Source of the DNA: Tepidisphaeraceae bacterium
GTDB lineage: Bacteria; Planctomycetota; Phycisphaerae; Tepidisphaerales; Tepidisphaeraceae
Direction of reading: 5' to 3'
DNA length: 32,310 nt
NCBI GenBank assembly: GCA_049512115.1
Contig: JBEKXM010000001.1
Span: forward strand, 1-32,310
In this document: piece after piece, positions 395-31,607 of the stretch
Layout: every line of letters starts with the position of its first letter
Position numbering within the stretch: the stretch's first letter is position 1
Notes under the pieces: generated by a model
Databases searched by the model: none
What the model saw: only the letters and a program-made list of their open reading frames with translations
Told to the model about the DNA's origin: nothing
Made by a program: the position numbers and the translations under genes

Positions 395-417
395 AAAGTA
401 CAACCTTGATTTTTGGA

Positions 418-12394: not shown

Positions 12395-12423
12395 GTCCGG
12401 TTTTTCATGGTTGGATTCGAGGA

Positions 12424-12449: not shown

Positions 12450-12515
12450 AGTAATTCGGGCCCGGTCGAGTCATCGGAGGAAATGGCGTCGCCGGCCTGG
12501 TAGCGGAGGAAAAAC

Positions 12516-13996: not shown

Positions 13997-14992
13997 TCAT
14001 TCCGGCTTGGCCTGGCGCGTCATCAGCGTCGTCAGTGCGCGGATCACTTCCGTCCCCTCGAACAGCACCGAATGCACAGCCTCGGTGATCGGCATTTCAA
14101 CGTTGTGGCGGATCGACAACTCGCGCACGCTGCGCGTCGTCGGAACGCCTTCGGCGACGCTATCCATTGAAGAGAGAATGTCCTGAAGCTTGCGGCCTTT
14201 GCCGATCTGTTCGCCGACCGTGCGGTTGCGGCCTTCGGGGCTGACGCAAGTGGTGATGAGATCGCCCAACCCGGCCAGGCCCTGGAAGGTGGATTCCTGC
14301 GCTCCCATGGCCACGCCCAGGCGGGTGATCTCCACCAGGCCGCGGGTGACCAATGCGGCCTTGGCGTTGTTGCCGGCGGCCAGGCCGTCGAGGATACCCG
14401 CGGCGATGGCAATGACGTTTTTGGTGGCGCCGGCCAGTTCCGTGCCGATCACGTCGCAGTTCGTGTAGACGCGGAACCACTGGGTTGAAAAAACGCTTTG
14501 GACTCGGCGGGCCAGATCGGCGTCATCGGAGGCGGCCACGGCGGTCGCGGGGAGATATCGCGCCAGCTCCGCGGCGATGTTGGGTCCGGACATCGCCGCC
14601 AAACCGCGGCCGCGGCCGACAACGTCCATCACGATTTGCGTGGGACGAAACAAAGTTTGGTTTTCGATCCCCTTGGCAACCGAGACGATCGGCACACCCG
14701 CCGGCACGTGCGCCGCCAACCGCTTCCACACGCTGCGCATGTATTGCGTGGGGACGGCCGAGAGGATCAGCGTGCAACCGTCGAAGCATTCGGCGTCGTT
14801 GGCGGTGAGGCGGACGTCTCGGGGCAACCTCACGCCGGGCAGAAACCGCCGATTCTCGCGGTTCTGGGTCAGCCGGTTGATCGAATCCTCGAACACACCC
14901 CAAAGCGTCACGTCGTGCCCGCCCTGGCTCAGGAGCAGCGAACAGACCGTCGCCATCGCGCCGTCGCCGATGATTGTGACTCGCTCGGACAT
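13997..14992 (-). CDS. gpsA: NAD(P)H-dependent glycerol-3-phosphate dehydrogenase
   Basis: 331 aa. Rossmann motif VTIIGDGAMATVCSLLL and GpsA motifs NRRFLPGV, VSVAKGIE, GATKNVIAIAAGILDGL, GNNAKAALVTRGLVE. Confidence 0.9.
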   Translation of the reverse strand: MSERVTIIGDGAMATVCSLLLSQGGHDVTLWGVFEDSINRLTQNRENRRFLPGVRLPRDVRLTANDAECFDGCTLILSAVPTQYMRSVWKRLAAHVPAGVPIVSVAKGIENQTLFRPTQIVMDVVGRGRGLAAMSGPNIAAELARYLPATAVAASDDADLARRVQSVFSTQWFRVYTNCDVIGTELAGATKNVIAIAAGILDGLAAGNNAKAALVTRGLVEITRLGVAMGAQESTFQGLAGLGDLITTCVSPEGRNRTVGEQIGKGRKLQDILSSMDSVAEGVPTTRSVRELSIRHNVEMPITEAVHSVLFEGTEVIRALTTLMTRQAKPE

Positions 14993-15056: not shown

Positions 15057-16718
15057 TCAGGCGGTCAGCTTCCCCACGCTTTGGTCCAATCCATCCGGGC
15101 GATTCCGCGCCAGCCAGCATTGCCGATGCAGTTGGACAATCCGGTCCAATTCCTGGGGCGTCGCCTCGCCTCGCGCCTTGCGGCATGCGTAGCGCAGCAT
15201 CGCCGCCGCGTTGGCAAATTCGCCCTTTATCAGTTCCGCGCCCTCTGGCGACATCTTCGCCAAATGGACATTCCGCATGGCGGACTCGATCGCCGCTTGG
15301 GCCCGATCCAAACCTGGGCGCGTGATTCCCTCCATCGGATCGCCGTGCGCGGATGAAGGGACGAGAATGCTGAATAACGCTGAGCGGTTGGGGACGAGTT
15401 TTCCCACGGCCTTGTAGACGTTGCCCAGCTCGCACGCCGCCCGGCCCATGACGCCCGCTTCATCGGCAAAGGCGTGAAGATCGAGCGCCCGCCGAAGCGG
15501 CAAATCGCGATTGGATTGCAGGCACCAGCTTAGCGCCGCCCCCGTGGCCAAGCCGGCAAAACTCATCGGCAAATATTGCAAATGCCCGTGATCGCCCCAG
15601 TCCGTGTTGAGGTATCCAACGGCCCCGTGCTTCAAGCCCGCCTCGGCCGCGGCGCGCTGATTGGCGAGCATGTTGTCCGTCCGTCCGGCGATGCTGCACC
15701 AACTGCTGGTTCCCGGACAGACATAAAACTCCACGCCGCTTTCGCCGAACCGGCGCGCCTCGGCATCGAACGGATGATCGGCCTCGTAACCCCAATTCAG
15801 GGCAATCACGTTTTTGGGCAATTCTCCGATCAGTTGCGGGTCTTTGAGAATGACATCGCCCCAGAACATCATCCGCCGGCCGTGGCGGGCGACCAATTCG
15901 TTGACGCGAAGCAGAAAATCCAGATACACGCGATGCACGCCGCGCCGGCGGCATTCGTCTTTGCTCCTGCCCTGGCCGACGTCGAACGTCTCATCGCAGC
16001 CGACGTTGAACAGGCCGCTGGTGAAATTCGGCAGGAGCTGGGAATACAAATCGGCCAGCAATTCCAGGCTTGCCGGATCGGTCGGACAAAGGCTGAACGG
16101 CCCTTTCCAACGGTATCCCCACGGCGTATCCGAACCCCGGGCCGCCTCGGCCAACGGCAAATATCGCGGATGCTTCAGCCAACGCTCCATGTGTCCGAAA
16201 CTGTTTTGATTCGGCGCCAGCTCGATGAATCGCGATTTGCAATGCTGGTCGAGTTGACGGACCTCATCGCCAGTCATGGCTCCGGCGTCCTGCCAGACCC
16301 GTTCGTGGCCGCGATAGGCGAAGGTATGCTCGGTGTAAAGCTGAAGCTGATTGATCTTCCACCCGGCGAGCATATCGACAAGCGAAAACAGCGTCGGCAT
16401 CGTGGGAACCTTGTCCCGGCTGATGTCGAGCATCACGCCGCGCACCGGGAAATCCGGCCAATCCTCGATCTCGAGGCAGGGCAACGACGCTGGAAACTGC
16501 CTGCGAAGCTGCGCCAGCGTTTGCCGCCCATAAAAAACCCCCGCGGCATCGTGGCCGACGATTCGGCAGGCATCCGGCGTGATCGAAAGCAGATAGCCCC
16601 GCGCATGGGTTGCGCCTGGATCGAGCCGTTCCAGGAGGGGCGCATCGGAGCGCCCCGCAGTCCGCTCCGTTCGCCGCGGCGCGGGCAAAAGGTTGATGGA
16701 ATCCTGGTCGCTCGCCAT
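15057..16718 (-). CDS. glycoside hydrolase family 20-like protein (beta-N-acetylhexosaminidase-like), no signal peptide
   Basis: 553 aa. DWPDFPVRGVMLDISRDKVPTMPTLFSLVDMLAGWKINQLQLYTEHTF and FNVGCDE (D-E pair) fit a GH20 TIM-barrel. The N-terminus MASDQDSINLLPAPRR has no signal peptide. Confidence 0.75.
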   Translation of the reverse strand: MASDQDSINLLPAPRRTERTAGRSDAPLLERLDPGATHARGYLLSITPDACRIVGHDAAGVFYGRQTLAQLRRQFPASLPCLEIEDWPDFPVRGVMLDISRDKVPTMPTLFSLVDMLAGWKINQLQLYTEHTFAYRGHERVWQDAGAMTGDEVRQLDQHCKSRFIELAPNQNSFGHMERWLKHPRYLPLAEAARGSDTPWGYRWKGPFSLCPTDPASLELLADLYSQLLPNFTSGLFNVGCDETFDVGQGRSKDECRRRGVHRVYLDFLLRVNELVARHGRRMMFWGDVILKDPQLIGELPKNVIALNWGYEADHPFDAEARRFGESGVEFYVCPGTSSWCSIAGRTDNMLANQRAAAEAGLKHGAVGYLNTDWGDHGHLQYLPMSFAGLATGAALSWCLQSNRDLPLRRALDLHAFADEAGVMGRAACELGNVYKAVGKLVPNRSALFSILVPSSAHGDPMEGITRPGLDRAQAAIESAMRNVHLAKMSPEGAELIKGEFANAAAMLRYACRKARGEATPQELDRIVQLHRQCWLARNRPDGLDQSVGKLTA

Positions 16719-16805
16719 GAGCCTGAAGTGTAACTAAAAACGCGGCGCCGATCTTTCGAATCGGCGCCGCGGTTCGTCCATACCAGAATTGTTCGATCCA
16801 CGGCT

Positions 16806-19067
16806 TTACGCGGCTTGTCCGCCGTTGTTCTGGTACTCGTAGTAGGTTCGGATGTTGCGGCCGTAGTATCCGCCGCCCTGGGCGCGGACGGCGTTGAGGA
16901 CGACGCCGAGGTGTTCGGCCTTGACCTGCCGGAGCGTGTCGCGCATGCGCGAGAGAACGCCACGGGTGTTGGTGCGGGCGCGAACGACGCTGACGACGCC
17001 ATCGACGCGAGGCGCCAGGGCCACCGTTTCGGAAACGAACAACAGCGGGCCGCTGTCGAAGATCACATGGTCGAATTCCTCCAGGGCGCGTTCGATGAAA
17101 TCGACGAGCAACTGGCTTTCGACCAGTTCGGTGGCGTTGGTGGGCTTGTGGCCGCTGGGCAGGACGAACAGGTTGGGCACCTGCGTTTCCTGCACGGCGT
17201 GCTCGAATAAATCGAGACTGTTCAGGACGTCGGAAAATCCCTGCTCATTGGCGAGGTTGAAGACCCGATGCAGTTCGGGACGACGGAAATTGGCATCAAC
17301 CAGGAGGATTCGCCGGCCGTTGAGCGCCAGACCGGCGGCGAGGTTGCAGGCGATGGTGGATTTGCCGTCGCCGGGCGAGGGGCTGGTGATCAGGATGCTG
17401 CGCGTGGTATCCAGGGACGAGCTGTGCTGGAGGCGCGTTCGCACCTGTCGAAGCTGTTCGGCCATCATGGAGTGCGGCGCCTCAAAGATGACGACGGGCA
17501 GGCGAGCGCCGGCGGATTGCGGATCGTCGTCCTCGTGCGGGACCATTCCCAGAAGGTTCAAAGACCCGACGCGGCTGATGTCGCGAGGCGAGCGGATGGT
17601 GGTATCCAGCAGTTCGCGGAGGAAGGCGATCCCCAGCGCCAGGAGCAGGCCCAAGGCGATCGACACGGTCATCGTCGCGGCGAGTTTGGGGAAACTGGGA
17701 ATCTCCGGAAGCTCCGGTTGCGCTTCCCATTCCACGCCGCCGAGGTCGCGCCTGGCGTTGTAGCTGGTGATCAGCTCCAACCGATTCTCGATCCCCTTCA
17801 GCTTCTCCTCGTCCAAGGTGCGCTCCGCCTGCTTCTGAATCAACTGTTGCACGCGCTCGGTGAGCTGGGCCATCTGGCCGTTGAGGTCCTTGATACTCTT
17901 ATCCATCATGTCGGCGCGGGCTTGGGCGTCTCGCGCCTTTTGGTTGAGCTGTTGTTCGATCTGGCTCCTGTAGCGCACTCGGGCCCTGTCTTCCTCCGTT
18001 TTCTCCCGACGGTCGACCATCTCCTTCTTCTGCTCGAGGCTTCGAAGCATTGGACTGTCGGGGCCCATATTGCCGCCGCGGGCCCCACCCAGTTCCAAGT
18101 CGAAGGTGTTTTGCATTTGCCTGAGGTTGACAATTTCGGGGTCCTTGTTTACCAGCTCCTCGACCTGCGGGATGTTGGTCGGATCATTGGCGATCTGCCT
18201 CTCCAGCTCGCCGTATTGCTCCTTGGCGGTCTGCTCTTCGAGCCTGGCGACCTGGAGATTTTGCAGCCACGCCTGGAGGGTCATGTCCTTCTCGCTGATC
18301 TTGGTGACGGTGCCGGAAACACCGTCGGAACTCAGTTCCACCAGAAGGTCGGAAATGTCGCCGTCGTCCAGCTTCACCCGGCCCTCGGCGGCGATTCGTT
18401 GCTGTTCGAGGTCCTGGTTGAAGCTGTACTGGCGATCGCGGCTTTTTTCCTGCTGGTCCTTGATGTACTGATCGACAAAGGATTGGACGACGACCTGGCA
18501 GGATTTGGGATCGCTGTCGGTCATGCTGACAACGATCAAGGGCGAATCGGGCGCGGAGGTGACCTGCAATTCGCCGTCGGCGAGGTTGGCCTTGGCCTCC
18601 TGAATGGTCGGTTGGCGCTTAAACCACTGAGTGGTGCGGATTTCGTCGTTGGGATTTTGCAGCACCTTGGTGATCAGGGCCGGATCGTTCATCATGGTGG
18701 TATGCAGACGGATTTGCAGGGGAAGGGCTTGGACGTTGAAGTCGTTGGAGGTGCGGAGCGTGCCTTCCTCGTTGGGCTCGAACATGCCGGGAATAACCAC
18801 CTTTCCTTCGGCGGTGTAGTGCGGATGGTACTTGTTCAACCAGTAATTGATGCCATATCCGGCACCGGCGCTGACGACCAAAAATAGGATGATCAGCCAA
18901 AAATTGGAGCGAATGACGCGCCAGACGTCGGAGCCGGACATGGTGGCCGATGCCTGGGCCTGCGCATGGCCGATGGCGCCGCCGGCGGGAAAGCTGGTGG
19001 TAACCGGCAAAGAGGAAAAACCCGGTCGCGGCAATCGCACTGCCGCTGTCTGCGGTAACGTAGTCAT
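16806..19067 (-). CDS. polysaccharide chain-length determinant fused to BY-type tyrosine autokinase (Wzc/GumC-like)
   Basis: 753 aa. TM helix, long coiled-coil periplasmic region, second TM, then a P-loop kinase: ILITSPSPGDGKSTIACNLA (Walker A), ILLVDANFRRP (A'), VIFDSGP (B). Tyr-rich tail GGGYYGRNIRTYYEYQ. AGGAG lies ~10 nt upstream of ATG 19067. The alternative ATG 18941 would remove a 42-aa leader. Confidence 0.9.
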   Translation of the reverse strand: MTTLPQTAAVRLPRPGFSSLPVTTSFPAGGAIGHAQAQASATMSGSDVWRVIRSNFWLIILFLVVSAGAGYGINYWLNKYHPHYTAEGKVVIPGMFEPNEEGTLRTSNDFNVQALPLQIRLHTTMMNDPALITKVLQNPNDEIRTTQWFKRQPTIQEAKANLADGELQVTSAPDSPLIVVSMTDSDPKSCQVVVQSFVDQYIKDQQEKSRDRQYSFNQDLEQQRIAAEGRVKLDDGDISDLLVELSSDGVSGTVTKISEKDMTLQAWLQNLQVARLEEQTAKEQYGELERQIANDPTNIPQVEELVNKDPEIVNLRQMQNTFDLELGGARGGNMGPDSPMLRSLEQKKEMVDRREKTEEDRARVRYRSQIEQQLNQKARDAQARADMMDKSIKDLNGQMAQLTERVQQLIQKQAERTLDEEKLKGIENRLELITSYNARRDLGGVEWEAQPELPEIPSFPKLAATMTVSIALGLLLALGIAFLRELLDTTIRSPRDISRVGSLNLLGMVPHEDDDPQSAGARLPVVIFEAPHSMMAEQLRQVRTRLQHSSSLDTTRSILITSPSPGDGKSTIACNLAAGLALNGRRILLVDANFRRPELHRVFNLANEQGFSDVLNSLDLFEHAVQETQVPNLFVLPSGHKPTNATELVESQLLVDFIERALEEFDHVIFDSGPLLFVSETVALAPRVDGVVSVVRARTNTRGVLSRMRDTLRQVKAEHLGVVLNAVRAQGGGYYGRNIRTYYEYQNNGGQAA

Positions 19068-19247
19068 AACGACACATCTCCTGGGGAACCGCGCACACCC
19101 GTCCTAATCCGAGCTTTTGCGCCGCGCTCGCTCCGCACAACACGCGAAGAAACACGCCCCTGCAAATTCTCGATTATTTCACATGCTCTCATGTTACATC
19201 GACGCATTCAATCGCTCTTTCCACGGGAGGCAAACCGGCCCGATTGC

Positions 19248-22200
19248 TTATGGGACCGAAGCCTGCGGCTTGGCAAGCTTCTGTGCCTCTGATCGGTTGA
19301 CCAAATCCTGTAGCTTAGCGCGGAGAACGGCATCCTGGGCGCCAGCTTTTTGCTTGTTAATCATTTGCAGGCCAAGCTTTGCCTGCATCTCGGCCTGAAC
19401 CGGATCGGGCGTCTGCATCCGCAGATAGCCCTCGCCGAGATGCAAATACTCATCGGGAAACGGCGGGAAGTTATTCATTGCGGTGTTCAGTATATGTACG
19501 CCTTCGGCCGCCGAGCCGTTCAAAATCAGCAGCCAGGCCTGCGTGTCCTGTAGTCGCGGTTCCGTTCGGCCGAGCCGCGACATCTTGCTGATGGCGGCAT
19601 TGATGTATTGCAAACCCTCCTGGGCACGGGGGGGCGAATAGTCGTCGGCCAGCAGGCAGGCAAGATTGTTCAGCGACTCGAGATTGTCCGGTTCAAGCTG
19701 TAGCCAGCGCTTGTAGGCCGCATAGGCCTTGTCCACCAGGGGCGTCGGCTTGGCCAGTTGATACATGACGGCAGCGCCGGACAAGACGATGATCTGATCG
19801 CGTTTGGCGAGCTTGTCGAAATTAGTCATGATTCCGTCGACGATCGCCAGCGCGGCCGAATCATCTCCATGGGCCTGATAGAGTTGCACTAGGGCGATCT
19901 TGGCCCCTACATTGTCCTTGGCGATAGCTGAAACGTCTTTGACGGCCTCGTCGTAGCCAAATTCCTGGTTAATACTTCGCGCGATGCTACCGAGTTCAAG
20001 GGGATGGTCTCCCGCCATCGCGGCGGACAGGGCCCGTTTGAAGTCCGGCAGCGCCGCCTGGTCGTTGCCAAGGCGCTTTTCCGCCAGAGCCAGGTCCCAC
20101 AGGGCCCATGGGGTTGTCTTGAGCTTGTCGCTCATCGCGGCGTAGTGGTCAACGACGGCCTGGAAATTTTGGCTATTCTGCAATAGCTGCATGTTGGTCC
20201 GCACGACGGTTGGATTGTCCGGGGCAATCCGAAGCGCCATTTCGCTTTTGGCCAGAGCGTTGTCTTTGAGGCCCAGCTCGCTGTAGATCACCGCCTCGCT
20301 CTGGAAGATGTCCGGATCGTGGTCGAAGGGGGAGACGGTTTCGACCTCCTGTAGCAGCTTCAACGCCTCGGAGAGCCGCGGATGCGGGCCGCCGCTGAAC
20401 ATGCCCACGAGCCTCATCCGCACATCCTTGTTCTTCGGTTCGATCCGGAGTGCTGCCAGCAACTCGGTGGCGGCCTCATCCGGCTGGCCGAGCATGAGGT
20501 GCGCGTCCGACAGACACAGCCGGACGTCCACCTTGTTGGGACTGGACTGGCGAACCGCTTCGAGATCTTGCAGCGCCCCGGCGGCAGCCGGCGGCTGCAT
20601 ACGCAACCGCGCGCGCCCCCGGCAGAACAGCGCCGTGAGTTGCCTCGGATTGATCGCCAGCGCCTTTGTCGCACGGTCCGCGGCATCCTGGAATTGGCCA
20701 TGCTCAAACAACGCCAGCGACCAGATGGTCAGTAGTTGCTCGGCGTTCACCGGGTTGCGGCTCAGATCGGACTTCAGTTCCTTCTGGGCATCGTCGAATT
20801 TTCCTTGGACGAGCAGGACTTCGATCGTCTTCTCCTGAACGTCGGGATTGTCGGTGTTCACGTCACGCAACAAGTGAATCGCGTCGTCGTATTTGCGGTG
20901 CATCGCCAGCAGGCTCGCCATGCGGATTTGCATGTCGGGCCGATAGCCCGATCGCGCCATCGCATCGTGCATTTCATCTTCGGACTTGTCCTGCATTCCC
21001 GCCCGTTCGTAGAAATCGGACAGCGCCAGGTACGGATCGGGCTGTGTTTTCCATGCCGGCTGCGACGCCCAGCTTTCCAGCGTCTTCAGGGCATCGTTCG
21101 GCAGCTTGGCCGCCAACTGGCATCGTGACAACGCGATGTACAACTCCGATTCGTTGGGCCATTTCACCACCGTGTCCTTCAACGCCTTGACGGCCTCCAG
21201 GGCTTGCTTGACGGCATCGTCGGGTTGGTTGTTCTTGTAGAGCATGTCCACGTAACGAAGCACCACGTCGCCCATGGCGGCATAAAGCTCCGGCTGATTG
21301 GGCCGGGTTTGCAGTTCGTCCTGAATGTCCTTCAAGGCAACCTCGGGCTTGCCGTAGTTCAGTTCATGCGTCACCCTCATTCGGGTGAGGGTCTGGTCGT
21401 TCGGGAGGTACTTGAGTCCGTCTTCGATCGTGTGCAAGGCATCATCGGGCCGGTGCAGAGCATAGTAGCACCGCACCAGCCCGACGTAGGCATCCCACAG
21501 ATTCGTCTCCTTCTGCAAGGCAACGAGGAATTGGGGAACCGCCTGATCGTACTGCTCTTCGGCCTCCAACACGTTCCCCAGCGCAAGCCAGGAACGCGCG
21601 AACTCGGGTTTGTCCAGGGTCAGTTTCCGGGCTATCGCTTCGGCGGTCGCGTTATCCTTCTGTGCCATGGCCAGCGCCAAGCGGTACATATCGCCCCCCG
21701 CCTGATCGGAGTTGGCCTTGGCCAGCACGGGAATGCACGCGCGCGCCTCCGGGTACTGTCCCGTCTTCAGATAGTGATTGAAAAGCAGTTCCTGAACGTG
21801 AGGGGAATCGGGCGCCAGCGATTGAGCGTTCTTGAGATCCGCTGCCTCTTCAGTCTCATTGCCACTGCGCGCCGCCAGCGCCGCCAGCATCAACTGTCCC
21901 TGGACCTTGTCGGGATTCTCTTCGGCAATCTCCTTCTCCAGACTCTCGATTTTCTTGGGGTCTTCGCCCTTGAGCGCCGGGATCAGCAGACGAAGCCGGG
22001 GATTTTTCGGATTGGCCGCCAGCCCGCGATTGGCGGCAGCCAGGGCCTGGTCCTTTTTGTCCAGGTGATACAGAAGCTCCGACAGCATGATCCAATCGTC
22101 GGCGTTGGCGGGATTCCGGTCCGTGCTCAACGTCAGAAGCCGGGCGGCCTCGGGGTAATCCTTGACCACGACCGCGACTCTCGCTTTGGCGCTGGCCTGT

Positions 22201-23894
22201 CTGGCAGTCTGCTCACCGAGCGCCGAGTAGAGTTGTCTGATCTTGTCCTGGTTCTTCTCTGGGTTACTCAGCAGGAGCTGAATGCGAAAAACGTTCAACT
22301 CCGGATCCTTTGGGAGGAGGCGCTGGAGTTCGTCAAGGTGGGCGGGTACCTGGTCCGGGTGGCCGATCAGCAGCAGGCGGACCAGGTGCTTCCGCGTCTG
22401 CACGTCCCGGGGGAATTGCTGCACCACGTCCTTCAAAATAGTCAGGGCGTTGGCGGACTGATTGGTGTCCTCATATCCCTGCGCCAGCAGCGTCTGGAAA
22501 ACGTACCAATAGTAGTTCTTGGTCGCCGGAGGGTTGTCCGCCATCATCTTGCTGAGGCCCTGAACGGCGAGCACCTCCTCGCTGGTGCCCGAGCCAATCT
22601 GGAATCGGGCTTCCACCTCCTTGAGCGGTAGAATCAGTCTGAAACCGGCGGCCTGGTCCAGCTTGTCCAGGGAAGCGCGGATTTCATCGTGCAGCTTCGT
22701 CTTTTCGAGCGAGGCCGGCATCGGCAGGTAATGGAAAACCTGGACCTTGGCCATCTCCAACATGACCCTGAACCGCAAACCGCCGAGCGCGATGTGATTG
22801 GGATCGTCCGTCAGAGACCCCAGCGTGGATTTGAGCAATTGCAGCGCCTGTTCCTGGGTGCCGGGCGACCGGCCCATCAGCTCGGCCCGCGCCAGGCGAG
22901 CGTCGGGCGTATCGGGCATCTTGTCATATATCTTCATCGCGCCGGCCGGATCGCCCCGCCGCATGGCCATCTCCGCCGCAGTCTGGTTGATCTCCACGTA
23001 GTTCGGGTCGCTCTGCTTCACCAATTCAAGTGCTCTGGCAATCTCCGATTTCGCGCGGTCCTGGTCTTTCTGCATCACGTCGGGACTTGACTGATCCACT
23101 CCTGACAAGTGTTCCAGCACCCTTGCGAAGTAATAATGCATGGAGGCGTTTTGGTCCTGCGAGCCCCCGTGCGGACCCGTCAGCACCGTCTCAAACGTCG
23201 CCACGGCGTTGTGGTAATGTTCGGTGACCTCTTTCAACTGAACCGGCGAGGGGTTTTGGCCCGCCAAATTCATTCCCAACTCGATCTCGGCGCTGGCAAT
23301 GGCGTAGGGCAGATCGCCGTTTGCGGGGTTCTTCTTCCAGAGGTCCTTCATTTCTTTGGTGGCACTATCCACCTCTTTCTGATCCGCATCGACTCCGTTG
23401 GCCCAAGCCTCAATGACCAGCTTGTCCGCCAAGGCCTGCATCTGCTCGTCCTTCGGGTCGGCCTGATGGGCGCGTCGGGTGTAGTCGATCGCGTTGCGGA
23501 AAAGATCGGCTCGGGGCTGTTGCTCCGCATGGGTTCTATACCAGTCGCTCAGCGCCATGAGCGCCGGCAGGTAGTTGGGATCGATTTCCAGCGCCTGGGT
23601 ATATGCCGCAACCTCAAACTGGCTGGCTTGCGGATCGTCCTCGGCCATCTTGGCCAGCGCTCCGCCCAGCATCATCTGCGTCTGGGGGTCATGGGGATTG
23701 AGCTTGGCGGCCTTGGCGAAGTCGGTGACCGCGTCCCCCCAGCTGCGATCCTTCATCGCCTGCTGGCCGAGGGCGATATAGCGGTCGGGGTGCTCGCGGA
23801 TCAGAAATCTCTGCGCCAGGAGTCCCGCCGCCACCGCCCCGACCAAAACGAGGAGCAGGATTGTTAAAAACCGGGTGTTGAGCCGTCTTGCCAT
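19248..23894 (-). CDS. giant membrane-anchored TPR-repeat protein (PrsT-like role inferred)
   Basis: 1548 aa. N-terminal anchor FLTILLLVLVGAVAAGLLA. The rest reads as continuous TPR-like helical hairpins (recurrent A..Y..AL...P....A...LG patterns). It sits between EpsI and the Wzc-like gene. Confidence 0.85.
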   Translation of the reverse strand: MARRLNTRFLTILLLVLVGAVAAGLLAQRFLIREHPDRYIALGQQAMKDRSWGDAVTDFAKAAKLNPHDPQTQMMLGGALAKMAEDDPQASQFEVAAYTQALEIDPNYLPALMALSDWYRTHAEQQPRADLFRNAIDYTRRAHQADPKDEQMQALADKLVIEAWANGVDADQKEVDSATKEMKDLWKKNPANGDLPYAIASAEIELGMNLAGQNPSPVQLKEVTEHYHNAVATFETVLTGPHGGSQDQNASMHYYFARVLEHLSGVDQSSPDVMQKDQDRAKSEIARALELVKQSDPNYVEINQTAAEMAMRRGDPAGAMKIYDKMPDTPDARLARAELMGRSPGTQEQALQLLKSTLGSLTDDPNHIALGGLRFRVMLEMAKVQVFHYLPMPASLEKTKLHDEIRASLDKLDQAAGFRLILPLKEVEARFQIGSGTSEEVLAVQGLSKMMADNPPATKNYYWYVFQTLLAQGYEDTNQSANALTILKDVVQQFPRDVQTRKHLVRLLLIGHPDQVPAHLDELQRLLPKDPELNVFRIQLLLSNPEKNQDKIRQLYSALGEQTARQASAKARVAVVVKDYPEAARLLTLSTDRNPANADDWIMLSELLYHLDKKDQALAAANRGLAANPKNPRLRLLIPALKGEDPKKIESLEKEIAEENPDKVQGQLMLAALAARSGNETEEAADLKNAQSLAPDSPHVQELLFNHYLKTGQYPEARACIPVLAKANSDQAGGDMYRLALAMAQKDNATAEAIARKLTLDKPEFARSWLALGNVLEAEEQYDQAVPQFLVALQKETNLWDAYVGLVRCYYALHRPDDALHTIEDGLKYLPNDQTLTRMRVTHELNYGKPEVALKDIQDELQTRPNQPELYAAMGDVVLRYVDMLYKNNQPDDAVKQALEAVKALKDTVVKWPNESELYIALSRCQLAAKLPNDALKTLESWASQPAWKTQPDPYLALSDFYERAGMQDKSEDEMHDAMARSGYRPDMQIRMASLLAMHRKYDDAIHLLRDVNTDNPDVQEKTIEVLLVQGKFDDAQKELKSDLSRNPVNAEQLLTIWSLALFEHGQFQDAADRATKALAINPRQLTALFCRGRARLRMQPPAAAGALQDLEAVRQSSPNKVDVRLCLSDAHLMLGQPDEAATELLAALRIEPKNKDVRMRLVGMFSGGPHPRLSEALKLLQEVETVSPFDHDPDIFQSEAVIYSELGLKDNALAKSEMALRIAPDNPTVVRTNMQLLQNSQNFQAVVDHYAAMSDKLKTTPWALWDLALAEKRLGNDQAALPDFKRALSAAMAGDHPLELGSIARSINQEFGYDEAVKDVSAIAKDNVGAKIALVQLYQAHGDDSAALAIVDGIMTNFDKLAKRDQIIVLSGAAVMYQLAKPTPLVDKAYAAYKRWLQLEPDNLESLNNLACLLADDYSPPRAQEGLQYINAAISKMSRLGRTEPRLQDTQAWLLILNGSAAEGVHILNTAMNNFPPFPDEYLHLGEGYLRMQTPDPVQAEMQAKLGLQMINKQKAGAQDAVLRAKLQDLVNRSEAQKLAKPQASVP

Positions 23895-24016
23895 GAGTAA
23901 CCTTCAATCTCCGCCTGAACGCGATAAAGGAGATGGATATCTCCAATATGCCTCAGCGTGGTCGAAAGTTGCATCTTTCGACAGCGCCGCTGGCGCGGAT
24001 CGCCCCAAAAATCCTC

Positions 24017-25012
24017 CTACGGATGGGAATGCTTCACCTTAGTCCAGTCAGGGAAGCAAGTTTCGATCTGCGGCCGCGCCGCCGTCAGAAAGTCTGCCAT
24101 CGCCGCGCTGGCATTAGAAATATCGGTATCTTCAATGTTCGGCACAAGGGTCATCAGTTCAATTTTGGCGTAATAACCATAACGTTCGGTCAAATCCTCC
24201 AAGGTTGTCCGGACCCCCAGGGGATCGCTTTCATAATGACCATTGGTGTGGAAGACGTAGGCCACGCATTTGGACACCCGGTTATTCCCCGTCGAGTCCT
24301 GGAAGCTGATAAACCGAACCGACTGAGAAAAAGGCTTGCCCGAAGCATCCGTGCCAAGCTGCCAGACGGGCACGGTGTACGATGACGGCTCGTATCCGTC
24401 GGCGATGTAGCAGCGGTCGGGGATGTGCGCCACGGTATCCACAAGGCCCGTGTAATACGTCAACCCAAGGTGAATGACGTCGCCCCAATGGTTCTTCACC
24501 TCCAGCGCCGACACGATCGACTTGCGCTCGCCGGGGGTCTTGCCTTGCAGCGCGTCGTTGATCATCCGCACCTGCTGATCGAAGGAAGCGGAATTGAATT
24601 TCGTCGTGGCCGCCTCGGCGGCATGCTGAGCGGCCGCCTCCGGCAACGACGGCTGCGTCGCCGCGGAAGCCGGGCCCGCCTTGGTGGCCATCATTGCCAC
24701 CAGATCGGCGCCGGCGCGATCCACCTCAATGTAATCACGGTAAATGTAACTTTCCGTGCCCAGCACGTCCTCGGTCTCCTTGTCCAGCTTGTCGTCTTGC
24801 GACACTTGCAGCCAACGGCCCATGACCGGCGGCAACTCGCGGAACTCGCGCGGCTGGGCAACCGAGTCCTTCTTGAAATGCAGCTTGAGGTTCCACACAA
24901 ACCCGTTGAACGCGATCGCCGACACCAGCAGGATTCCCGAAACGATCACGAACGCCGGATGCGCCGCGCCTCGCGACTGACCGCGTGAAAATTTGGGACC
25001 ATTCCAACTCAT
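24017..25012 (-). CDS. exosortase-associated EpsI-family protein (DUF3485-like) with an Ala-rich insertion
   Basis: 331 aa. N-terminal TM (AFVIVSGILLVSAIAFNGFVW), LPPVMGRWLQ, VIHLGLTYYTG...HIPDRCYIADGYEP (EpsI-type H.P..C motif). Its ATG overlaps the exosortase TGA (ATGA at 25009-25012). Confidence 0.8.
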   Translation of the reverse strand: MSWNGPKFSRGQSRGAAHPAFVIVSGILLVSAIAFNGFVWNLKLHFKKDSVAQPREFRELPPVMGRWLQVSQDDKLDKETEDVLGTESYIYRDYIEVDRAGADLVAMMATKAGPASAATQPSLPEAAAQHAAEAATTKFNSASFDQQVRMINDALQGKTPGERKSIVSALEVKNHWGDVIHLGLTYYTGLVDTVAHIPDRCYIADGYEPSSYTVPVWQLGTDASGKPFSQSVRFISFQDSTGNNRVSKCVAYVFHTNGHYESDPLGVRTTLEDLTERYGYYAKIELMTLVPNIEDTDISNASAAMADFLTAARPQIETCFPDWTKVKHSHP

Positions 25013-26514
25013 CCGGCCTCCGACGGGGAATCCGCGTCTCCATTATTGTCGCGGCGCTTGCGCGGGGAGGGAGCGCGCGACGCCAGGCGAATCGAGGGCG
25101 GCGGCGGCACGATGGATCTCATGTCCCCGGCCTGTCTCCGCGGCCCGGCGGCGGGCTTGGGCGACGAAGGCCCCGGCTTTGCAGGTGCCGCCGCGGGCTT
25201 TGCCGGTTGAGCATCCGGTTGCGACGGTGCGCTGGCTCCGCGGATCGCCGCCAAGCTCCTTGGCGCCGCCCGTGGCGACAGTGCCGAGGCCACCGGCGCC
25301 GTCGAACGCGTGATAACCTTCGGCGCGATCGCCACAAAGCGGCGGTCAATTTGCTCCACGAATATCTGGTCCAGAATCCAACCCACCAGCAATATCATCA
25401 GAAACGCCGGAACCAGCATGATCAGCCCCACGAACTGGTGGGCGAAATTCTCGGAAAGGGAATGGCTGACGTAGCGATCCAAAAGTCCCTGGCCGGAGAC
25501 TCTCATCACGTTGCAGGAGATGGCGATGGGAACGGCGAACAGCACCACGATGATTTTCTGCCAGAGCGGCCTGCTCGACAAAAACGCCACCGCCGCCGCA
25601 ACGGATATGAACGTCATGAGCGAGCGCATTCCGGCGCAGGCCTCGGCGACGTTGAGGGTCCGCCAGTTCCCGTCGCCGCCGACCATCGAGATTTTCGTCC
25701 CCCCGACGGACGCCTCGACGCCGGTCAGTTGCAACGTCCAGACGGCGACGTTGGCGGCGAGTTGCTGAAGGGGTCCGGCGACTTTGCTGTAGACCAGTCC
25801 CGGCCATGGCAGCCCGCAAACCAGAAATGAGATGGGAAACCACGCCACCTTCATGACGCTCCACCCGCTCAGCGCCAGGACCACGCCGAACAGCGTGATC
25901 ACCATTCCCAAGTCCTTCATAAAATCGTTTTGGCCGGGGAAGATGGCGTACTGGAACACGGCGATGCCGAAAAGCACGATGAAGCCGCCGAACCAACCCG
26001 CGGAGTGCTCGTCGGCGCGCAGCGCGAGCGAATCCGAGTGGCTCAAGAGGCGCCACAGCAATGGTGCGGCGATGATCGCGGCGCTGACGGCGGCGACGTA
26101 CAGAAATACCCTGCGGGCCTCCTCGTAGACCAAACCAAGCGGCAACGCCGCGGCCAGGGCCAGCAGCGCCCATACCCGCAGCTCGATTTGACGTCGAGTG
26201 GGCTGCGCTGATGAGCCTCCATGCAGCAGCTTTTCACGATTCACGTACAGGTAATAAAGCCCGATCACCGGGATGCAGATTGCGTGTCCCCAATTCGCCT
26301 CCCCATAGAAGGGATTGGTCTTGTCCCAGAGCCGGCGGAGGTTCGGCCAGAACAATGCGCTGAACAGCGCGGTGATCACCGCGATCTGAATCCAGACCGA
26401 ACGCTTGAGTCCGCAAACAACCGGGTCGGCCAGGGAATCCAGCGCATCCGGGGGGACCTGGCCCGTCAGGACGGCATCACCGTTATCCACGTCGTTGATT
26501 TGCGTCTGGCTCAT
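25009..26514 (-). CDS. exosortase (EpsH/Xrt family) with a ~110-aa Pro/Ala-rich C-terminal tail
   Basis: ORF track 25009..26538 (GTG). I prefer ATG 26514. Polytopic membrane protein. NVAEACAGMRSLM carries the catalytic Cys (track residue 301, nt 25636-25638). CNVMRV supplies the conserved Arg, with His downstream. The tail runs from about residue 400: RSTAPVASALSPRAAPRS...AKPAAAPAKPGPSSPKPAAGP... Confidence 0.9.
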   Translation of the reverse strand: MSQTQINDVDNGDAVLTGQVPPDALDSLADPVVCGLKRSVWIQIAVITALFSALFWPNLRRLWDKTNPFYGEANWGHAICIPVIGLYYLYVNREKLLHGGSSAQPTRRQIELRVWALLALAAALPLGLVYEEARRVFLYVAAVSAAIIAAPLLWRLLSHSDSLALRADEHSAGWFGGFIVLFGIAVFQYAIFPGQNDFMKDLGMVITLFGVVLALSGWSVMKVAWFPISFLVCGLPWPGLVYSKVAGPLQQLAANVAVWTLQLTGVEASVGGTKISMVGGDGNWRTLNVAEACAGMRSLMTFISVAAAVAFLSSRPLWQKIIVVLFAVPIAISCNVMRVSGQGLLDRYVSHSLSENFAHQFVGLIMLVPAFLMILLVGWILDQIFVEQIDRRFVAIAPKVITRSTAPVASALSPRAAPRSLAAIRGASAPSQPDAQPAKPAAAPAKPGPSSPKPAAGPRRQAGDMRSIVPPPPSIRLASRAPSPRKRRDNNGDADSPSEAG

Positions 26515-26702
26515 GCGACAAGGCTGCCAAGGCGCCACGCCGGCGCCTTCTAAACATCGCCTGCCGGACTTTTACGCCCGGCTTGGGCGGCAGGTTCGAT
26601 CCACCATCCCCGAATCCAACTATTGCGGCATCGGAACTTTATGCTGCACGATTAAGGTTTTGATTAAACCTTCCGCAATATCGGACTAACCGCCATCCAT
26701 CC

Positions 26703-28130
26703 CTAGAAAGCATTGGGACCATTGTAAAAGTTTCTATCGTAAGCCCAACTCGCACCATAACTTATACGAAACGAGTTACGCACTGCCGCGAGAAACGGAG
26801 CAATAAAATGCGTGCCAACGTAAACAACGTCGTTGGGTTTCAAATAAATATCCGGCTCGTCAAGCGCCAGAATCTTGTCCAGGCGCACCCGAACGCAGAC
26901 TTCGCGATTGGTGCCGATCCGGCGAACGACCTCGGCTCTAAACGGCATGGCGTACTCGTCCGCCCCGCCGGCCGCCACCCACGCCTGCTTGAGCGTCACG
27001 TCCATGCCCGTCAGGCCGAAAACACCGGGACGGGCAACGTGGCCTCCCACGTAATAAACGCCCGTGACCGGCTCCGGCACAATGATCATGTCGCCGGGAC
27101 GGATCACGACGTTGTATTTCAGTTCCCCGTACTGCCTCAATTGATCGATCGGCACGCGGATGATCCGCATATCGGTCGGGGCTTCCACATCGTCGAACTT
27201 AAAGACCTGTGGCGACTGTGGAGGCATGGCCTTCCCCTGTGGAGGCACGACGTTGTCCATCGCGATCGTCCGCTGGGTCGGCGCGGGAGGATTGGCCCGG
27301 CCCTGCGGGCCGGCGGGATTCGTCGGCGGCGGAACAAGCAGGTTCCCGGGCGCCGTCGTCGGCGCCTCGGGAGTCGTCGGCGCCTCGTGAGTCGGCGGCG
27401 GAGCAAATATGTCCGCGGGCGCCGTCGTCGGCAGGTTCGGCTGCGGCGCCGGCGGCGAAATGACCCCGGGCTGCGTGCCCGGCTCCGCCGCCTTCCGAAT
27501 GATGTACGCATACGGCACGCCAATGGCCACCGCCGGAGAATGCGAAGTCACCATCGCATCGAGCATCCTGAAATCGGGCTTGGTGATCTGATACTCCCCC
27601 GCCGCGCCAACGTTGCCCTGAATGCTGAAGGTCCTCGCCCGCGCCTCGGCCACGGTCACCGAAACCCGCGCTTTGCGGATCAGGTTTGCCTCTTCGTAGG
27701 CCTTGGAAACCGCCTGCTCCAACTCCCGCTCGGTCAATCCAGCCGCCTTGACCGGCGAAACGAACGGGAGGCTGATCATCCCGGTCTCCGTCACCCGCAC
27801 CGTCTTGACCTGCTCGCCCGTTCCTTCGCCCAGCAAATCAAAAATCGACACGCTCACCAAGTCGTTGGGACCAAGCTTGTAATCCGAAATGTCGGGAACG
27901 AGATCGGCCGGCTCGATATCGGTCGCCGACGCGAAAGCCGTGGTCGGCTCTTCGATGCCGTTGGCCAGCGTGTCCAGCACCGGAACGATCAGTGGCTTCG
28001 ATTTGTCGTTATCGGGAGAGACTATTTTGGGTTCGCCGGGATTGAGGAAATCGTTTATGAAGGGCCCGTCGCAGCCGGTCAACAGCCCGCTCAGCGCCAC
28101 CCACGCCACCACCGTAAACGCCCGGCCCAT
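26703..28130 (-). CDS. Wza-like polysaccharide export lipoprotein (Poly_export + SLBB) with a Pro-rich insertion
   Basis: ORF track 26703..28163 (TTG). ATG 28130 gives MGRAFTVVAWVALSGLLTGC (lipobox LTGC). YKLGPNDLVSVSIFDL...TGMISLPFVSPVKAAGLTERELEQ is the Poly_export motif. VVIRPGDMIIVPE is SLBB-like. The ~95-aa insert is encoded at about 27207..27488. Confidence 0.85.
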   Translation of the reverse strand: MGRAFTVVAWVALSGLLTGCDGPFINDFLNPGEPKIVSPDNDKSKPLIVPVLDTLANGIEEPTTAFASATDIEPADLVPDISDYKLGPNDLVSVSIFDLLGEGTGEQVKTVRVTETGMISLPFVSPVKAAGLTERELEQAVSKAYEEANLIRKARVSVTVAEARARTFSIQGNVGAAGEYQITKPDFRMLDAMVTSHSPAVAIGVPYAYIIRKAAEPGTQPGVISPPAPQPNLPTTAPADIFAPPPTHEAPTTPEAPTTAPGNLLVPPPTNPAGPQGRANPPAPTQRTIAMDNVVPPQGKAMPPQSPQVFKFDDVEAPTDMRIIRVPIDQLRQYGELKYNVVIRPGDMIIVPEPVTGVYYVGGHVARPGVFGLTGMDVTLKQAWVAAGGADEYAMPFRAEVVRRIGTNREVCVRVRLDKILALDEPDIYLKPNDVVYVGTHFIAPFLAAVRNSFRISYGASWAYDRNFYNGPNAF

Positions 28131-28345
28131 GATTCTGCCGCCCGAGTTTGAAGACAAACGCAAGACGCGCTCCTTTCCAACTGTTCCCTATCGATGCCGT
28201 TCCCGCCCACTTTGGCGCTTCTCGCCATCCATCTGAGGCGGAGTCATCCAAAAGGTGGAGAGAATCTTGCAAGAAAAAAGGGCTTTTGGCAAGCATCCCG
28301 ACCGGCATTCGGCGACTCTTTTCTCGCATCACGTCTGTTTTCGCA

Positions 28346-29869
28346 TCATGCCAGCCGTCGAAACTGCCTTTTGACCGCGGGGGGAACGGCCCCCCGCCGT
28401 ACCTTCACGGCATCGGAAGGCAAATGTTTCAGCAAAAATCGCGGCCGATCGCTGCGTCCGCCGCGTTGATAGTCCCGCCAGACCGCCTCGGCCGTCCCCC
28501 TGGCGTCTTGCCCCAATTCCCCCGTGAGAAATTCGAATAGCAACTCCGCCAGATGGTGGAGGGAGATGCCATGATTCTTCCCGGCCCGGGAAAAAATCCA
28601 ATCACTGAAGCGCAAAAATCGCGCAAACGGCGCGGCGTCGCGCCAGATCAGCGGCGATGATTCCAGGAAATTGCCGCTGTTAGATACCAGGTCCCAATAC
28701 CGGGCGAACCGGCGCAGCCGCTGCATGGTCGCGAAGTCGATTGCCCCGGTCTGCAACACCTCATAGGGAGGCGAGGGGCTGTAGACCATTTTCCATTCCC
28801 GGTCGTGCCGGGCGATCGGCGTGCCCCGCAGCCGCTTCAGCAAACCGACTTGAATCTCCTGCGGACCCAATCCAACCAACCGGTCGAACCCCGCCGCGAA
28901 ACTTTCCAAATCCTCGCCCGGCAAGCCGACGATCAGGTCGGCATGAACGTGCACGCCGGTCTGTTCTCTCAGGAACGTCAGGTTCTCCTCGGCCCGGCGG
29001 GCGTCCTGCCGGCGGCTGATCCGCCGGCAAACGTCCGGATTGAAACTCTGGATCCCCACCTCGAACTGCAACGCTCCGGGGGGAAAAAGCCGAATCGCTT
29101 CCCGCAGCCCCTCCGGCAATCGATCCGGAATCATCTCGAAATGCAAAAATAGCCCCGGCTCATACCGCTTCCAGAAAAAATCCAGGATCGCCCGGCCGAT
29201 TTGAACGTTCAGATTGAACGTCCGATCGACGAACTTGAATCGCCGCAGCCCACGATCCAGCAATCGGCCCATCGCCGGCAGAAAATCCTCCAGCGGTACG
29301 TTGCGCACCGGAACGTCCAGCGACGACAAACAGAATTCGCACGAGAACGGACAGCCGCGCGACGCCTCGACGTACACCACGCGATGCGCCAAATCACGGT
29401 CGTCGTAAAGATCATAAGGCAACTTCAGGCGCGAGAAATCCGGCAATTCCGCGGGTAATACATGCGCCGGCGGCCGCAGGCCGGACAAAATCTCCTCGCA
29501 CATCCGGGCGAACGCCAGATCGGCTTCGCCCGTGATGACGTAATCCGCCAACCGGCAAATCTCCTGCTCATCCACTTCGTGACTCACCTCCGGCCCGCCA
29601 AGGATGACGACAACGTCCGGCCGCAAGCGCTTCAGTTCCGCGACGATCTGCGTCGCGGGGGTGACGTTCCAGATGTAAATCCCCATCCCGACGATCCGCG
29701 GATTCTCGGCCAGGATCGCCTCGACCAAGTCGGTCGGCTTTTGATTGATCTCGAACTCCAGGATGCCGGCGCGGTGGCGCAACGGACCAAGGTTGGCCAG
29801 GAGATACCGCAACCCGAACGCCGCATGGGCGTATTTGGCGTTGAGGGTGGAAAGAAGAATGTCCGGCAT
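28346..29869 (-). CDS. B12-binding-domain radical SAM protein (DUF4080-type C-terminus)
   Basis: ORF track 28346..29956. I prefer ATG 29869 ([27 protein letters not shown], the usual N-terminus of this family). The upstream 29 codons run through the heptad repeat. [14 protein letters not shown] is the CxxxCxxC radical-SAM cluster. Confidence 0.85.
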
Positions 29870-29903: not shown

Positions 29904-29951
29904 GATTGCCGATTGCCGATTTCCAATTGCCGATTGGAAGAGGGCGGAGCC
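29904..29951 (+). repeat. 5x heptad repeat element, copy B
   Basis: GATTGCC GATTGCC GATTTCC AATTGCC GATTGGA (29904-29938), then cggagcc. It lies 35 nt upstream of the radical-SAM ATG, in the same orientation as copy A. Confidence 0.8.
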
Positions 29952-30437: not shown

Positions 30438-31607
30438 ATGCCTATTCCCGGGGCTGGAGTATTTCGGCGGATGGGGACCTTCGTTTTGTCGCTGTTCTTA
30501 TTTTCAGCAGCCCAGGCTTCCTCGGGTGCGCCGGCCACACGGCCTGCCCTTGCAGAATTTAAGATCGAAGGTTCAAACCACATGATTACCATTCCCGTTG
30601 TTTGGAAGGGTAAACAGCAGTGCTTTTTATTGGATACCGGATTTATGTTCAGTGTTATGGACTCCACAGCATTTCCCGATTTGCAGGATACTGGGAATTC
30701 GATGGATGTGAAGACTCTCGCGGGGGGTACCACAACCTTTGAACTGTGTAATCCTCCCCATCTAGATATTAACCCCATACGAATAAGTGATGCGCTTGTG
30801 GGCCGGCAGGATTTGGCAAACCTTAGGGCTGCTTTGGATCGTCCGATTATCGGTATTCTTGGGGTAGTCGCATTACGCGATTTCGTTGTGCAAATAGACT
30901 TCGATGAAAACCGCCTGCGGTTTTTCCGGCCGGACTCTTTGCCCCATCCCGAGTGGGGCACGCAAATACCCATCGAGTCCAACGGTCTTACCCCGGCCAT
31001 TAATCTGGAAATCTTAGATCAGCATGTTGTATTTAACATAGACACCGGATGCAACGGTGGTGTGGAACTGCCCTCTGCCCTCTTCGATAGCGTGCAGCGG
31101 TCGGTCAACGCGGCCATTGATTCAGATCCGTTAACTGTGATCCAACGAACCATAAACTCACGGAAAATGCGGGTGCCGACATTTGAAATCGCCAACATGC
31201 GATATCGCGATATCTTGATTGACGAAACGAAAACCGATGTCGGCTCTCTGAGCTTGAACTTCCTTTCGCGCCACATGGTAACGATTGATTTCCCTAATCT
31301 GCGATTGTATTTGAAGCCCGGCAAGCAATTTTCTCGGCACGACGAGGACGGCATGAGCGGCCTGCACATTCTCCGTCCGACATCCCAAACCGTGGCGGAT
31401 ATTGTGGACAAGGATAGCCCCGCCTACGAGGCCGGAATTCGGGATGGCGACATCCTCCTTACAGTGAACCAGAGACCGGCCGGGGAGTACGATATTGAAG
31501 ACCTGCGCGATCTATTGCAATCGCAGGACGGCAAAGAGGTTACGGTTACATACCGCCGCGGTGATACGACCAAAACCGTGGCTTTCAAGCTCCGGCGTAA
31601 GATTTGA
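30438..31607 (+). CDS. secreted two-lobed retropepsin-like aspartic protease with C-terminal PDZ domain
   Basis: 389 aa. Signal MPIPGAGVFRRMGTFVLSLFLFSAAQA. Two D-T-G motifs: LLDTG (nt 30633-30641) and NIDTG (nt 31041-31049). C-terminal GLHILRPTSQTVADIVDKDSPAYEAGIRDGDILLTVNQRP is PDZ-like. GC is visibly lower (~50% by eye). Confidence 0.8.
   Translation: MPIPGAGVFRRMGTFVLSLFLFSAAQASSGAPATRPALAEFKIEGSNHMITIPVVWKGKQQCFLLDTGFMFSVMDSTAFPDLQDTGNSMDVKTLAGGTTTFELCNPPHLDINPIRISDALVGRQDLANLRAALDRPIIGILGVVALRDFVVQIDFDENRLRFFRPDSLPHPEWGTQIPIESNGLTPAINLEILDQHVVFNIDTGCNGGVELPSALFDSVQRSVNAAIDSDPLTVIQRTINSRKMRVPTFEIANMRYRDILIDETKTDVGSLSLNFLSRHMVTIDFPNLRLYLKPGKQFSRHDEDGMSGLHILRPTSQTVADIVDKDSPAYEAGIRDGDILLTVNQRPAGEYDIEDLRDLLQSQDGKEVTVTYRRGDTTKTVAFKLRRKI

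Follow-up and report, generated by a model that had tools for sequence, protein, structure and literature searches.

An exosortase encoded with Wza-, EpsI-, tetratricopeptide repeat- and Wzc-like proteins in a conserved five-gene cassette of Phycisphaerae

Results

Gene content of the minus-strand cluster

The 32-kb window analysed here (positions 1 to 32,310 of contig JBEKXM010000001.1, assembly GCA_049512115.1, from a Tepidisphaeraceae bacterium) carries on its minus strand an exosortase gene placed among genes for envelope export proteins. Seven co-directional open reading frames (ORFs) were found in this cluster by ORF listing and profile searches of the window, and the coordinates and families that a sequence-only reading of the same DNA had given for them were all borne out. 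Five of the seven, henceforth referred to as the cassette, encode in order a Wza-like outer-membrane polysaccharide export (OPX) lipoprotein (26703–28163, alternative start 28130), the exosortase (25009–26514), an EpsI-like protein of the DUF3485 type (24017–25012), a 1548-residue protein made up entirely of tetratricopeptide repeats (TPR; 19248–23894) and a Wzc-like fusion of chain-length regulator and bacterial tyrosine kinase (BY-kinase; 16806–19067). A radical S-adenosylmethionine (radical SAM) enzyme gene lies upstream of the cassette and a GH20-family gene downstream of it. The functional unit is probably the five-gene cassette from 16806 to 28163, belonging to an unnamed, XrtA-like exosortase lineage of the Phycisphaerae.

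All genes of the cluster run in one direction with inter-gene gaps of 64–215 bp, and the ORF starts were identical in an independent Joint Genome Institute (JGI) gene call of an identical 11.5-kb metagenome contig, which gave no extension of the window. The family matches of all cluster ORFs exceeded Pfam gathering scores. Presence and absence within the window were judged by scanning every sizeable ORF with Pfam and NCBIfam models, and model scores are written below as score/cut-off in bits. No sizeable ORF matched a glycosyltransferase, Wzx/Wzy, PrsK/PrsR or acyl-carrier/ligase family, so that the absence of such genes claimed in the sequence-only reading holds for the window. Rfam and tRNA scans for RNA genes in the window were empty.

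The only large unannotated ORF (7906–9483) was considered as a hidden Wzy or Wzx. It was found to contain a single signal-peptide-like segment and no further transmembrane (TM) segment, and its product is therefore taken to be secreted, neither a polymerase nor a flippase.

Assignment of the exosortase

The exosortase passed PF09721 (168.2/25.7), TIGR04178 (65.7/23) and, by a slim margin, the 8TM_EpsH model TIGR02602 (109.6/105.55). None of the named NCBIfam exosortase models (XrtA, B, C, D, J, N, T, V, W, X and Z; CrtA, B and C) reached its cut-off: scores were 143/400 for XrtD, 112/208 for XrtA, 106/425 for XrtW, 102/313 for XrtV and 75/275 for XrtB, and lower for the others. Ten relatives sampled from lower in the homologue list (~32–46% identity) likewise reached no named subfamily cut-off. 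Because the window protein and its distant relatives miss every named cut-off, the lineage is unnamed in the current curated library, and the present database label of the family is only 'exosortase/archaeosortase family protein'. The sequence-only reading had suggested that a distinct exosortase subsystem might be present and had proposed scoring against the subfamily profile models; when this was done, generic models alone were passed, in agreement with that suggestion.

The protein has approximately eight hydrophobic or TM segments and a Pro/Ala-rich C-terminal tail, with a low-complexity insert at residues 400–501, and it retains the N-terminal FWPNLRRLWDKTNPFYGEANWGH block. Residues C293, R297, R338 and H359 were invariant among 17 sequences extending down to 48% identity. 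From knowledge of the family, C293, R338 and H359 are the putative catalytic residues. An exhaustive search of 1.84 billion representatives returned 195 relatives at E < 1e-30. The closest of these, at up to 92% identity, come from metagenome-assembled genomes of Tepidisphaeraceae, a family placed by taxonomy look-up in the order Tepidisphaerales, class Phycisphaerae, of the Planctomycetota. Further down the list identity drops below ~45% to a second tier at 35–42%, many members of which are Xrt::EpsI fusions of 650–790 residues.

Companion proteins of the cassette

The EpsI gene overlaps the exosortase stop codon by 4 bp, which is also the median over 58 loci. In Phycisphaerales relatives EpsI is fused to the exosortase, and the window EpsI aligns with the C-terminal halves of such Xrt::EpsI fusion proteins. 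The protein scored 34.4/26.1 against PF11984 and has one N-terminal TM segment; no NCBIfam model matched it at E < 0.001, including TIGR02914, the model named for EpsI (PMC1569441). Residues H196, P198 and C201, within the stretch HIPDRCY (196–202), were invariant across 28 separate and exosortase-fused sequences at 26–35% identity, and residues ~100–175 form a low-complexity insert. An AlphaFold2 model of the protein was confident (pLDDT 87), and no PDB structure matched it at E ≤ 0.001 in a Foldseek search. The highest-ranking hit, SciW, whose PDB entry describes binding to the Rhs1 transmembrane domain, was too weak to use (E 0.013, TM-scores 0.21/0.41).

The giant TPR protein has a single N-terminal TM anchor and lacks a lipobox Cys. 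Its best NCBIfam match was PrsT (TIGR02917, 195.5/312.2), below cut-off. The N-terminal motif MARRxNT+FL and the TM helix after it are kept in relatives, although overall identity is 25–40%, and a TPR protein of 1490–1700 residues occupies the same position in those genomes.

The Wza-like protein matched PF02563 (Poly_export, 59.1/28) and PF22461 (SLBB_2, 37/27), and its best NCBIfam match, the pepcterm_export model TIGR03027, stayed below cut-off (73/180). It has the lipobox LLTGC, and a lipobox-like motif is present in 41 of 61 homologues. The start at TTG 28163 is more likely than that at ATG 28130, because an invariant GGAG precedes the TTG and the stretch between the two codons is conserved in relatives. 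A Pro-rich insert spans residues ~215–310. An 18-bp tandem repeat of 2.6 copies (27355–27400, minus strand) encodes part of the Pro/Thr/Ala-rich Wza linker.

The 753-residue Wzc-like protein shows the architecture of a class 2a polysaccharide co-polymerase (PCP-2a), with TM segments at ~48–77 and ~459–488 and a C-terminal BY-kinase domain. It passed TIGR01007 (133.7/108) and stayed below cut-off for TIGR01005 (166/411), TIGR03018 (123/231) and TIGR03007 (46/279). Walker A (GDGKST, 566–571), A' (LLVDANFRRP, 588–597) and B (VIFDSGP, 668–674) motifs were identified, as was a cluster of five Tyr residues at 731–746; 48 of 55 homologues have four to six Tyr in their final 25 residues. The window protein gave no match to the Pfam Wzz family (PF02706), for which a faint match was seen only in one relative (L088).

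Conservation of the five-gene cassette

A neighbourhood survey, in which one genome per species was scanned, yielded 79 loci that were analysed by tblastn and ORF clustering, almost all of them carrying Tepidisphaerales or Phycisphaerae labels; loci L081–L083 are Pfam-annotated contigs. In all 79 loci the core genes present (Wza, Xrt, EpsI, TPR and Wzc) were colinear on a single strand. The full set of five was found in 57, contig ends cutting most of the remainder, and Wza was found in 72 by tblastn. The TPR protein measures ~1530–1700 residues across the survey and Wzc ~745. The flanking genes vary, none of their families being shared by more than seven of the 79 loci. The lean neighbourhood described in the sequence-only reading, devoid of glycosyltransferase and PrsK/R genes, is the conserved state of the lineage.

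The same cassette was present in four distant loci (29–42% exosortase identity), on long contigs reached by searching relatives of a second-tier exosortase: Mucisphaera calidilacus CP036280.1, JBCCBV01, CAZBST01 and CAYYMD01. M. calidilacus is a cultured member of the Phycisphaerales with a complete genome. The order in these loci is Wza, Xrt with EpsI fused or separate, a TPR protein of 1490–1635 residues and a Wzc-like protein of 730–850 residues. As the arrangement is shared with these four loci, the cassette is a class-level feature of the Phycisphaerae and not specific to the window. In two distant Phycisphaerales loci the cassette runs on into genes for an NAD-dependent epimerase and a Glycos_transf_4 (WecA/MraY-type) transferase (L086, 18858–21169; L087, 19499–21888). 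Title and abstract literature searches returned no description of the Phycisphaerae cassette.

An 833-residue protein predicted from a metagenome (P0436) carries exosortase domains as well as Wza-type Poly_export/SLBB domains; this reflects either a genuine fusion or a gene call that ran Wza and Xrt together at their junction.

Boundaries of the predicted transcript

A hairpin with a perfect 13-bp stem containing 10 G-C pairs, followed by TTTTT, lies past the Wzc stop and ahead of the GH20 start (16771–16741 in coding-strand direction, minus strand; fold z = −3.45). This intrinsic-terminator-like element is likely the 3' end of the cassette transcript, as predicted from its sequence. Comparable hairpins (stem of at least 9 bp with a T-rich tail) were found within 200 nt 3' of Wzc in 28 of 52 loci, against a background of 1.2% in random 200-nt windows from the same loci, and the hairpin is retained in three loci where GH20 comes after Wzc (L001, L003 and L007).

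At the other end, alignment of six relatives showed a conserved element in the spacer between the radical SAM gene and Wza, TTGCCA-N17-CAAGAT/CAATAT, together with the invariant Shine-Dalgarno sequence and TTG start. In the window the element (TTGCCA-N17-CAAGAT) lies at 28264–28292 on the minus strand and is a plausible candidate for the cassette promoter. Many loci that lack an adjacent radical SAM gene have a divergent gene upstream of Wza. Taken together, the post-Wzc hairpins, the conserved element before Wza and the divergent upstream genes delimit a unit spanning Wza to Wzc.

Radical SAM, GH20 and gpsA neighbours

The radical SAM gene (28346–29869, minus strand) encodes a B12-binding enzyme with a DUF4080 domain (PF02310, 58.1 bits; PF04055, 60.1 bits; PF13311, 47.4 bits) and a CxxxCxxC motif (CPFSCEFC, residues 173–180). 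It reaches no named NCBIfam equivalog, and DUF4080 was not mentioned in the literature searched. The GH20-family gene (15057–16718, minus strand) encodes a hexosaminidase-like protein (PF02838, 45.3/26.1; PF00728, 61.1/22.3) with a GCDE catalytic pair at residues 240–243. Its PDB relatives are beta-N-acetylhexosaminidases (best E 7.5e-17). No signal peptide was found, consistent with the cytoplasmic location claimed in the sequence-only reading.

Adjacency was assessed in loci with enough sequence upstream of Wza for the radical SAM gene, or downstream of Wzc for GH20. The radical SAM gene adjoins Wza in 11 of 54 such loci, all with at least ~56% exosortase identity, and GH20 adjoins Wzc in 5 of 41, being present in four of the eight loci of the radical SAM-positive sub-clade that have downstream sequence. 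Two contigs at 57% identity (L081 and L082) have the radical SAM gene and no GH20, and one at 55% (L083) has neither; the radical SAM gene was also not beside the cassette in any of four outgroup loci. On a 5.04-Mb contig of the L064 genome, ~2.2 Mb separate the cassette (0.24 Mb) from a 69%-identical radical SAM orthologue (2.42 Mb), and an orthologue of 69% identity is likewise unlinked in L085. With over 8000 homologues at E < 1e-20 and a rate of evolution well below that of the cassette, the radical SAM gene behaves as expected of an independent conserved gene. The radical SAM and GH20 genes are accordingly classed, on these comparisons of gene order, as lineage-specific neighbours of a sub-clade and not as members of the cassette.

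An eighth co-directional gene, gpsA (glycerol-3-phosphate dehydrogenase; 13997–14992, minus strand; NF000942, 400/257), follows 64 bp past GH20 and had been left out of the earlier list of seven. Among relatives gpsA lies directly 3' of Wzc in L034, L036, L063 and L064, and in the two Phycisphaerales loci analysed (L086, 6903–7901; L087, 6880–7923) it is divergent and lies upstream of Wza. This recurrence may point to ancient synteny or to a connection with lipids. The position of the epimerase and transferase genes of L086 and L087 is occupied in the window by GH20, behind the terminator-like hairpin.

A heptamer, GATTGCC (GGCAATC on the coding strand), is repeated 4.7 times at 29904–29936, 35–67 bp upstream of the radical SAM ATG. 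It sits in a 570-bp divergent spacer shared by the radical SAM gene and a PDZ/aspartyl-protease-like gene (30438–31607). A tandem-repeat scan of the window found only this heptamer and the 18-bp repeat of the Wza linker.

PEP-CTERM proteins and remaining features of the window

Three candidate PEP-CTERM cargo genes lie on the plus strand, as had been claimed, with tails consisting of a VPEP or IPEP motif, a TM helix and an Arg cluster. The first (1578–2531) has the tail VPEPVSFAMVGLGALTLLTRRRARSS and probably a true start internal to the ORF. The second (2883–4904; TIGR02595, 21.2/16; PF00404) has a dockerin-like repeat, and the third (5186–7321; PF12951) an autotransporter-type PATR repeat and the tail IPEPTTLCIMTIAACGLLGRRRK, its PF07589 score of 20.3 falling just under the 20.7 cut-off. 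The second protein continues ~22 residues past its Arg cluster; the other two tails end within six residues of theirs. The cargo genes are flanked by a gene for a protein with a prepilin-type N-terminal methylation motif (418–1344, minus strand) and by a fragment with a faint 'Planctomycete extracellular' motif (2–403, minus strand).

Sites of the sigma-54/PrsR type (TGGCAC-N5-TTGC) were not enriched in the window, with 27 matches found and 37.7 expected. Overlapping ORFs at 10127–11330 (minus strand), with a truncated DUF932 match (profile positions 47–210 of 227), a faint Lhr winged-helix match and lower G+C, look like mobile-element remnants or decayed genes. A P-II (glnB/glnK) gene and the ammonium transporter gene amtB follow one another at 11876–13976 (plus strand) and are convergent with gpsA. 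Translation of the long P-II ORF probably begins at a Met within it.

Discussion

Relation to described exosortase and export systems

Each of the five cassette proteins has a counterpart in the XrtA/PEP-CTERM system (PMC1569441), whose models are the best or near-best NCBIfam matches of the cassette (TIGR03027, TIGR02917, TIGR03018 and TIGR03007), all below cut-off. The two are also alike in the adjacency or fusion of EpsI with the exosortase (PMC1569441) and in the ordinary PEP-CTERM tails of the window cargo. In the XrtA system, however, chain-length and kinase proteins are separate, whereas the cassette fuses both in the 753-residue Wzc-like protein, and PrsT is a lipoprotein covering 899 model positions, whereas the cassette TPR protein is ~1550 residues long and TM-anchored. 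PrsK/PrsR and sigma-54 sites are features of the XrtA system; the window has neither PrsK/PrsR nor an excess of such sites, and its cassette lacks adjoining glycosyltransferase, deacetylase, FemAB-like and asparagine-synthase genes. Since Wza, EpsI, the TPR protein and the chain-length/kinase protein all have XrtA counterparts, the cassette is best described as a divergent, pared-down relative of that system and not as one built from different parts. It resembles the XrtA system in its working and is not a member by curated tests.

XrtD, the VPLPA-CTERM-specific exosortase (TIGR04152), gave the top-scoring named model, its alignment covering profile positions 18–261 of 486. XrtD has a fused EpsI-like region, as do Phycisphaerales relatives of the window exosortase, but its cargo carries VPLPA tails, unlike the VPEP/IPEP tails of the window. 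At the cyanoexosortase B locus of Nostoc punctiforme the exosortase is likewise encoded with Wza- and Wzc-type export genes (PMC12188702). That locus also has a Wzy and the CrtB-associated protein TIGR04533, both of which were looked for in the window and not found, and the portion of the published account drawn on here places no giant TPR protein at the crtB locus (PMC12188702); CrtB models gave the window exosortase 39 bits against a cut-off of 300. With Wza-Wzc (OPX/PCP-2a) export the cassette has in common a lipoprotein with Poly_export and SLBB domains and a two-TM co-polymerase fused to a BY-kinase that has the three Walker motifs (A, A' and B) and a cluster of Tyr at its C terminus. It differs in lacking a linked Wzb phosphatase, Wzx, Wzy and glycosyltransferases, and in that the Wza-Wzc pair instead brackets the exosortase, EpsI and the TPR protein.

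The sequence-only reading had proposed a distinct exosortase subsystem of seven genes, headed by the radical SAM enzyme and closed by GH20. The distinct subsystem stands insofar as an unnamed lineage with a conserved, lean context was found, and it comprises five genes in place of seven. When neighbours were tabulated in relatives, as that reading had advised, the giant TPR protein recurred, and the radical SAM and GH20 genes did so in a minority of loci. Their adjacency to the cassette is largely absent in related genomes, an outcome the reading itself had named as counting against its proposal.

A possible mechanism

The biochemical steps outlined here, and the coupling of protein sorting to Wza/Wzc, are drawn from what has been learned about exosortases and Wza/Wzc export. 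Like PEP-CTERM proteins in general, the three candidate cargo proteins of the window (1.5–7.3 kb) would cross the inner membrane via Sec and remain tethered by the C-terminal helix. The exosortase would then cut at the PEP motif, using its invariant Cys, Arg and His, and hand the protein to an acceptor. EpsI, whose translation would be coupled to that of the exosortase in the window and which forms one protein with it in sister lineages, would be its obligate periplasmic partner, and the inner-membrane-anchored TPR protein of ~1500 residues would serve as a periplasmic scaffold. Wzc and Wza would form a phosphorylation-controlled conduit through the envelope for polysaccharide, and possibly also for processed proteins, with the genes for synthesis of the sugar polymer located elsewhere in the genome.

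The tight linkage of the five genes and the Wza::Xrt protein P0436 suggest a single envelope-spanning machine. In its fullest form, the TPR protein would dock the exosortase and EpsI to Wzc/Wza, and processed proteins would exit there, free or joined to polymer. This is offered tentatively, as an arrangement that is conceivable and on balance doubtful. For cyanoexosortase B, exit of PEP-CTERM proteins together with polymer through a Wza-type channel has been raised, and the route was called 'currently unclear' in that account (PMC12188702).

Several observations weigh against the cassette as delimited here or against the coupling of its parts. According to the same account, neither the acceptor used by exosortases nor the way PEP-CTERM proteins pass the outer membrane has been settled in any system (PMC12188702), and gene linkage is therefore the sole basis for coupling to Wza/Wzc. 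The giant protein may score against PrsT through the summed similarity that TPR repeats share in general. Wza was not detected in four surveyed loci (L048, L053, L055 and L070) that do have upstream sequence. At the 5' boundary the promoter-like element has a weak −10 match and was missed by a consensus promoter scan, and no terminator-like hairpin was found between the radical SAM gene and Wza in a scan of the window, so that read-through from the radical SAM gene is possible.

Alternative explanations

The cassette could instead encode two co-regulated machines, in which Wza and Wzc, possibly with the TPR protein, export polymer while the exosortase and EpsI act separately, without hand-over, and cargo leaves by another exit. 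Exosortase genes generally occur among exopolysaccharide genes with no contact demonstrated (PMC1569441), and, unlike Xrt and EpsI, which overlap, Wza and Xrt are set apart by a long spacer (median 229 bp), as are TPR and Wzc (median 169 bp). The extension of the Phycisphaerales cassette into epimerase and WecA-like transferase genes, which are typical polysaccharide genes, also fits such a division. However, colinearity of the five genes from 92% down to ~30% exosortase identity, with all flanks changing, is a linkage that exceeds usual co-regulation, and P0436 carries the two supposedly separate parts in one protein. We consider two machines unlikely.

A second alternative holds that in the sub-clade of the window all seven genes form one operon and subsystem, with the radical SAM and GH20 enzymes supplying or remodelling the acceptor or the cargo. 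Adjacency of the radical SAM gene to Wza in 13 genome loci and in L081 and L082 (56–92% exosortase identity), with differing genes upstream of the radical SAM gene, is consistent with this, as are the placement of GH20 after Wzc in six relatives, the hairpin-free junction before Wza and the short gaps between the co-directional genes. Against it stand the 43 of 54 assessable loci, together with L083 and the outgroups, where the radical SAM gene is not adjacent, its unlinked orthologues and slow evolution, and the lack of GH20 in half of the radical SAM-positive loci with downstream sequence. The strong Wzc-GH20 terminator is kept even where GH20 is next to Wzc. A seven-gene operon thus appears improbable.

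Chance juxtaposition of unrelated genes or mis-annotation of spurious ORFs, to which the weak EpsI score and the companion proteins' NCBIfam matches below cut-off might point, is refuted by the neighbourhood tables, in which full-length homologues occupy matching positions in ~85 loci, and by ORFs that all lie above Pfam gathering scores, and is considered extremely improbable.

Implications

Exosortases are widespread, and most exosortase loci sit among 20 to 30 polysaccharide genes. Here five genes are kept together across a class while their surroundings change, and Wza, Wzc, EpsI and the giant TPR protein are therefore likely direct partners of the exosortase. The occurrence of the cassette in the cultured and fully sequenced M. 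calidilacus makes this partnership open to experimental testing, and the exosortase family merits an annotation model of its own. [quoted passage not shown]

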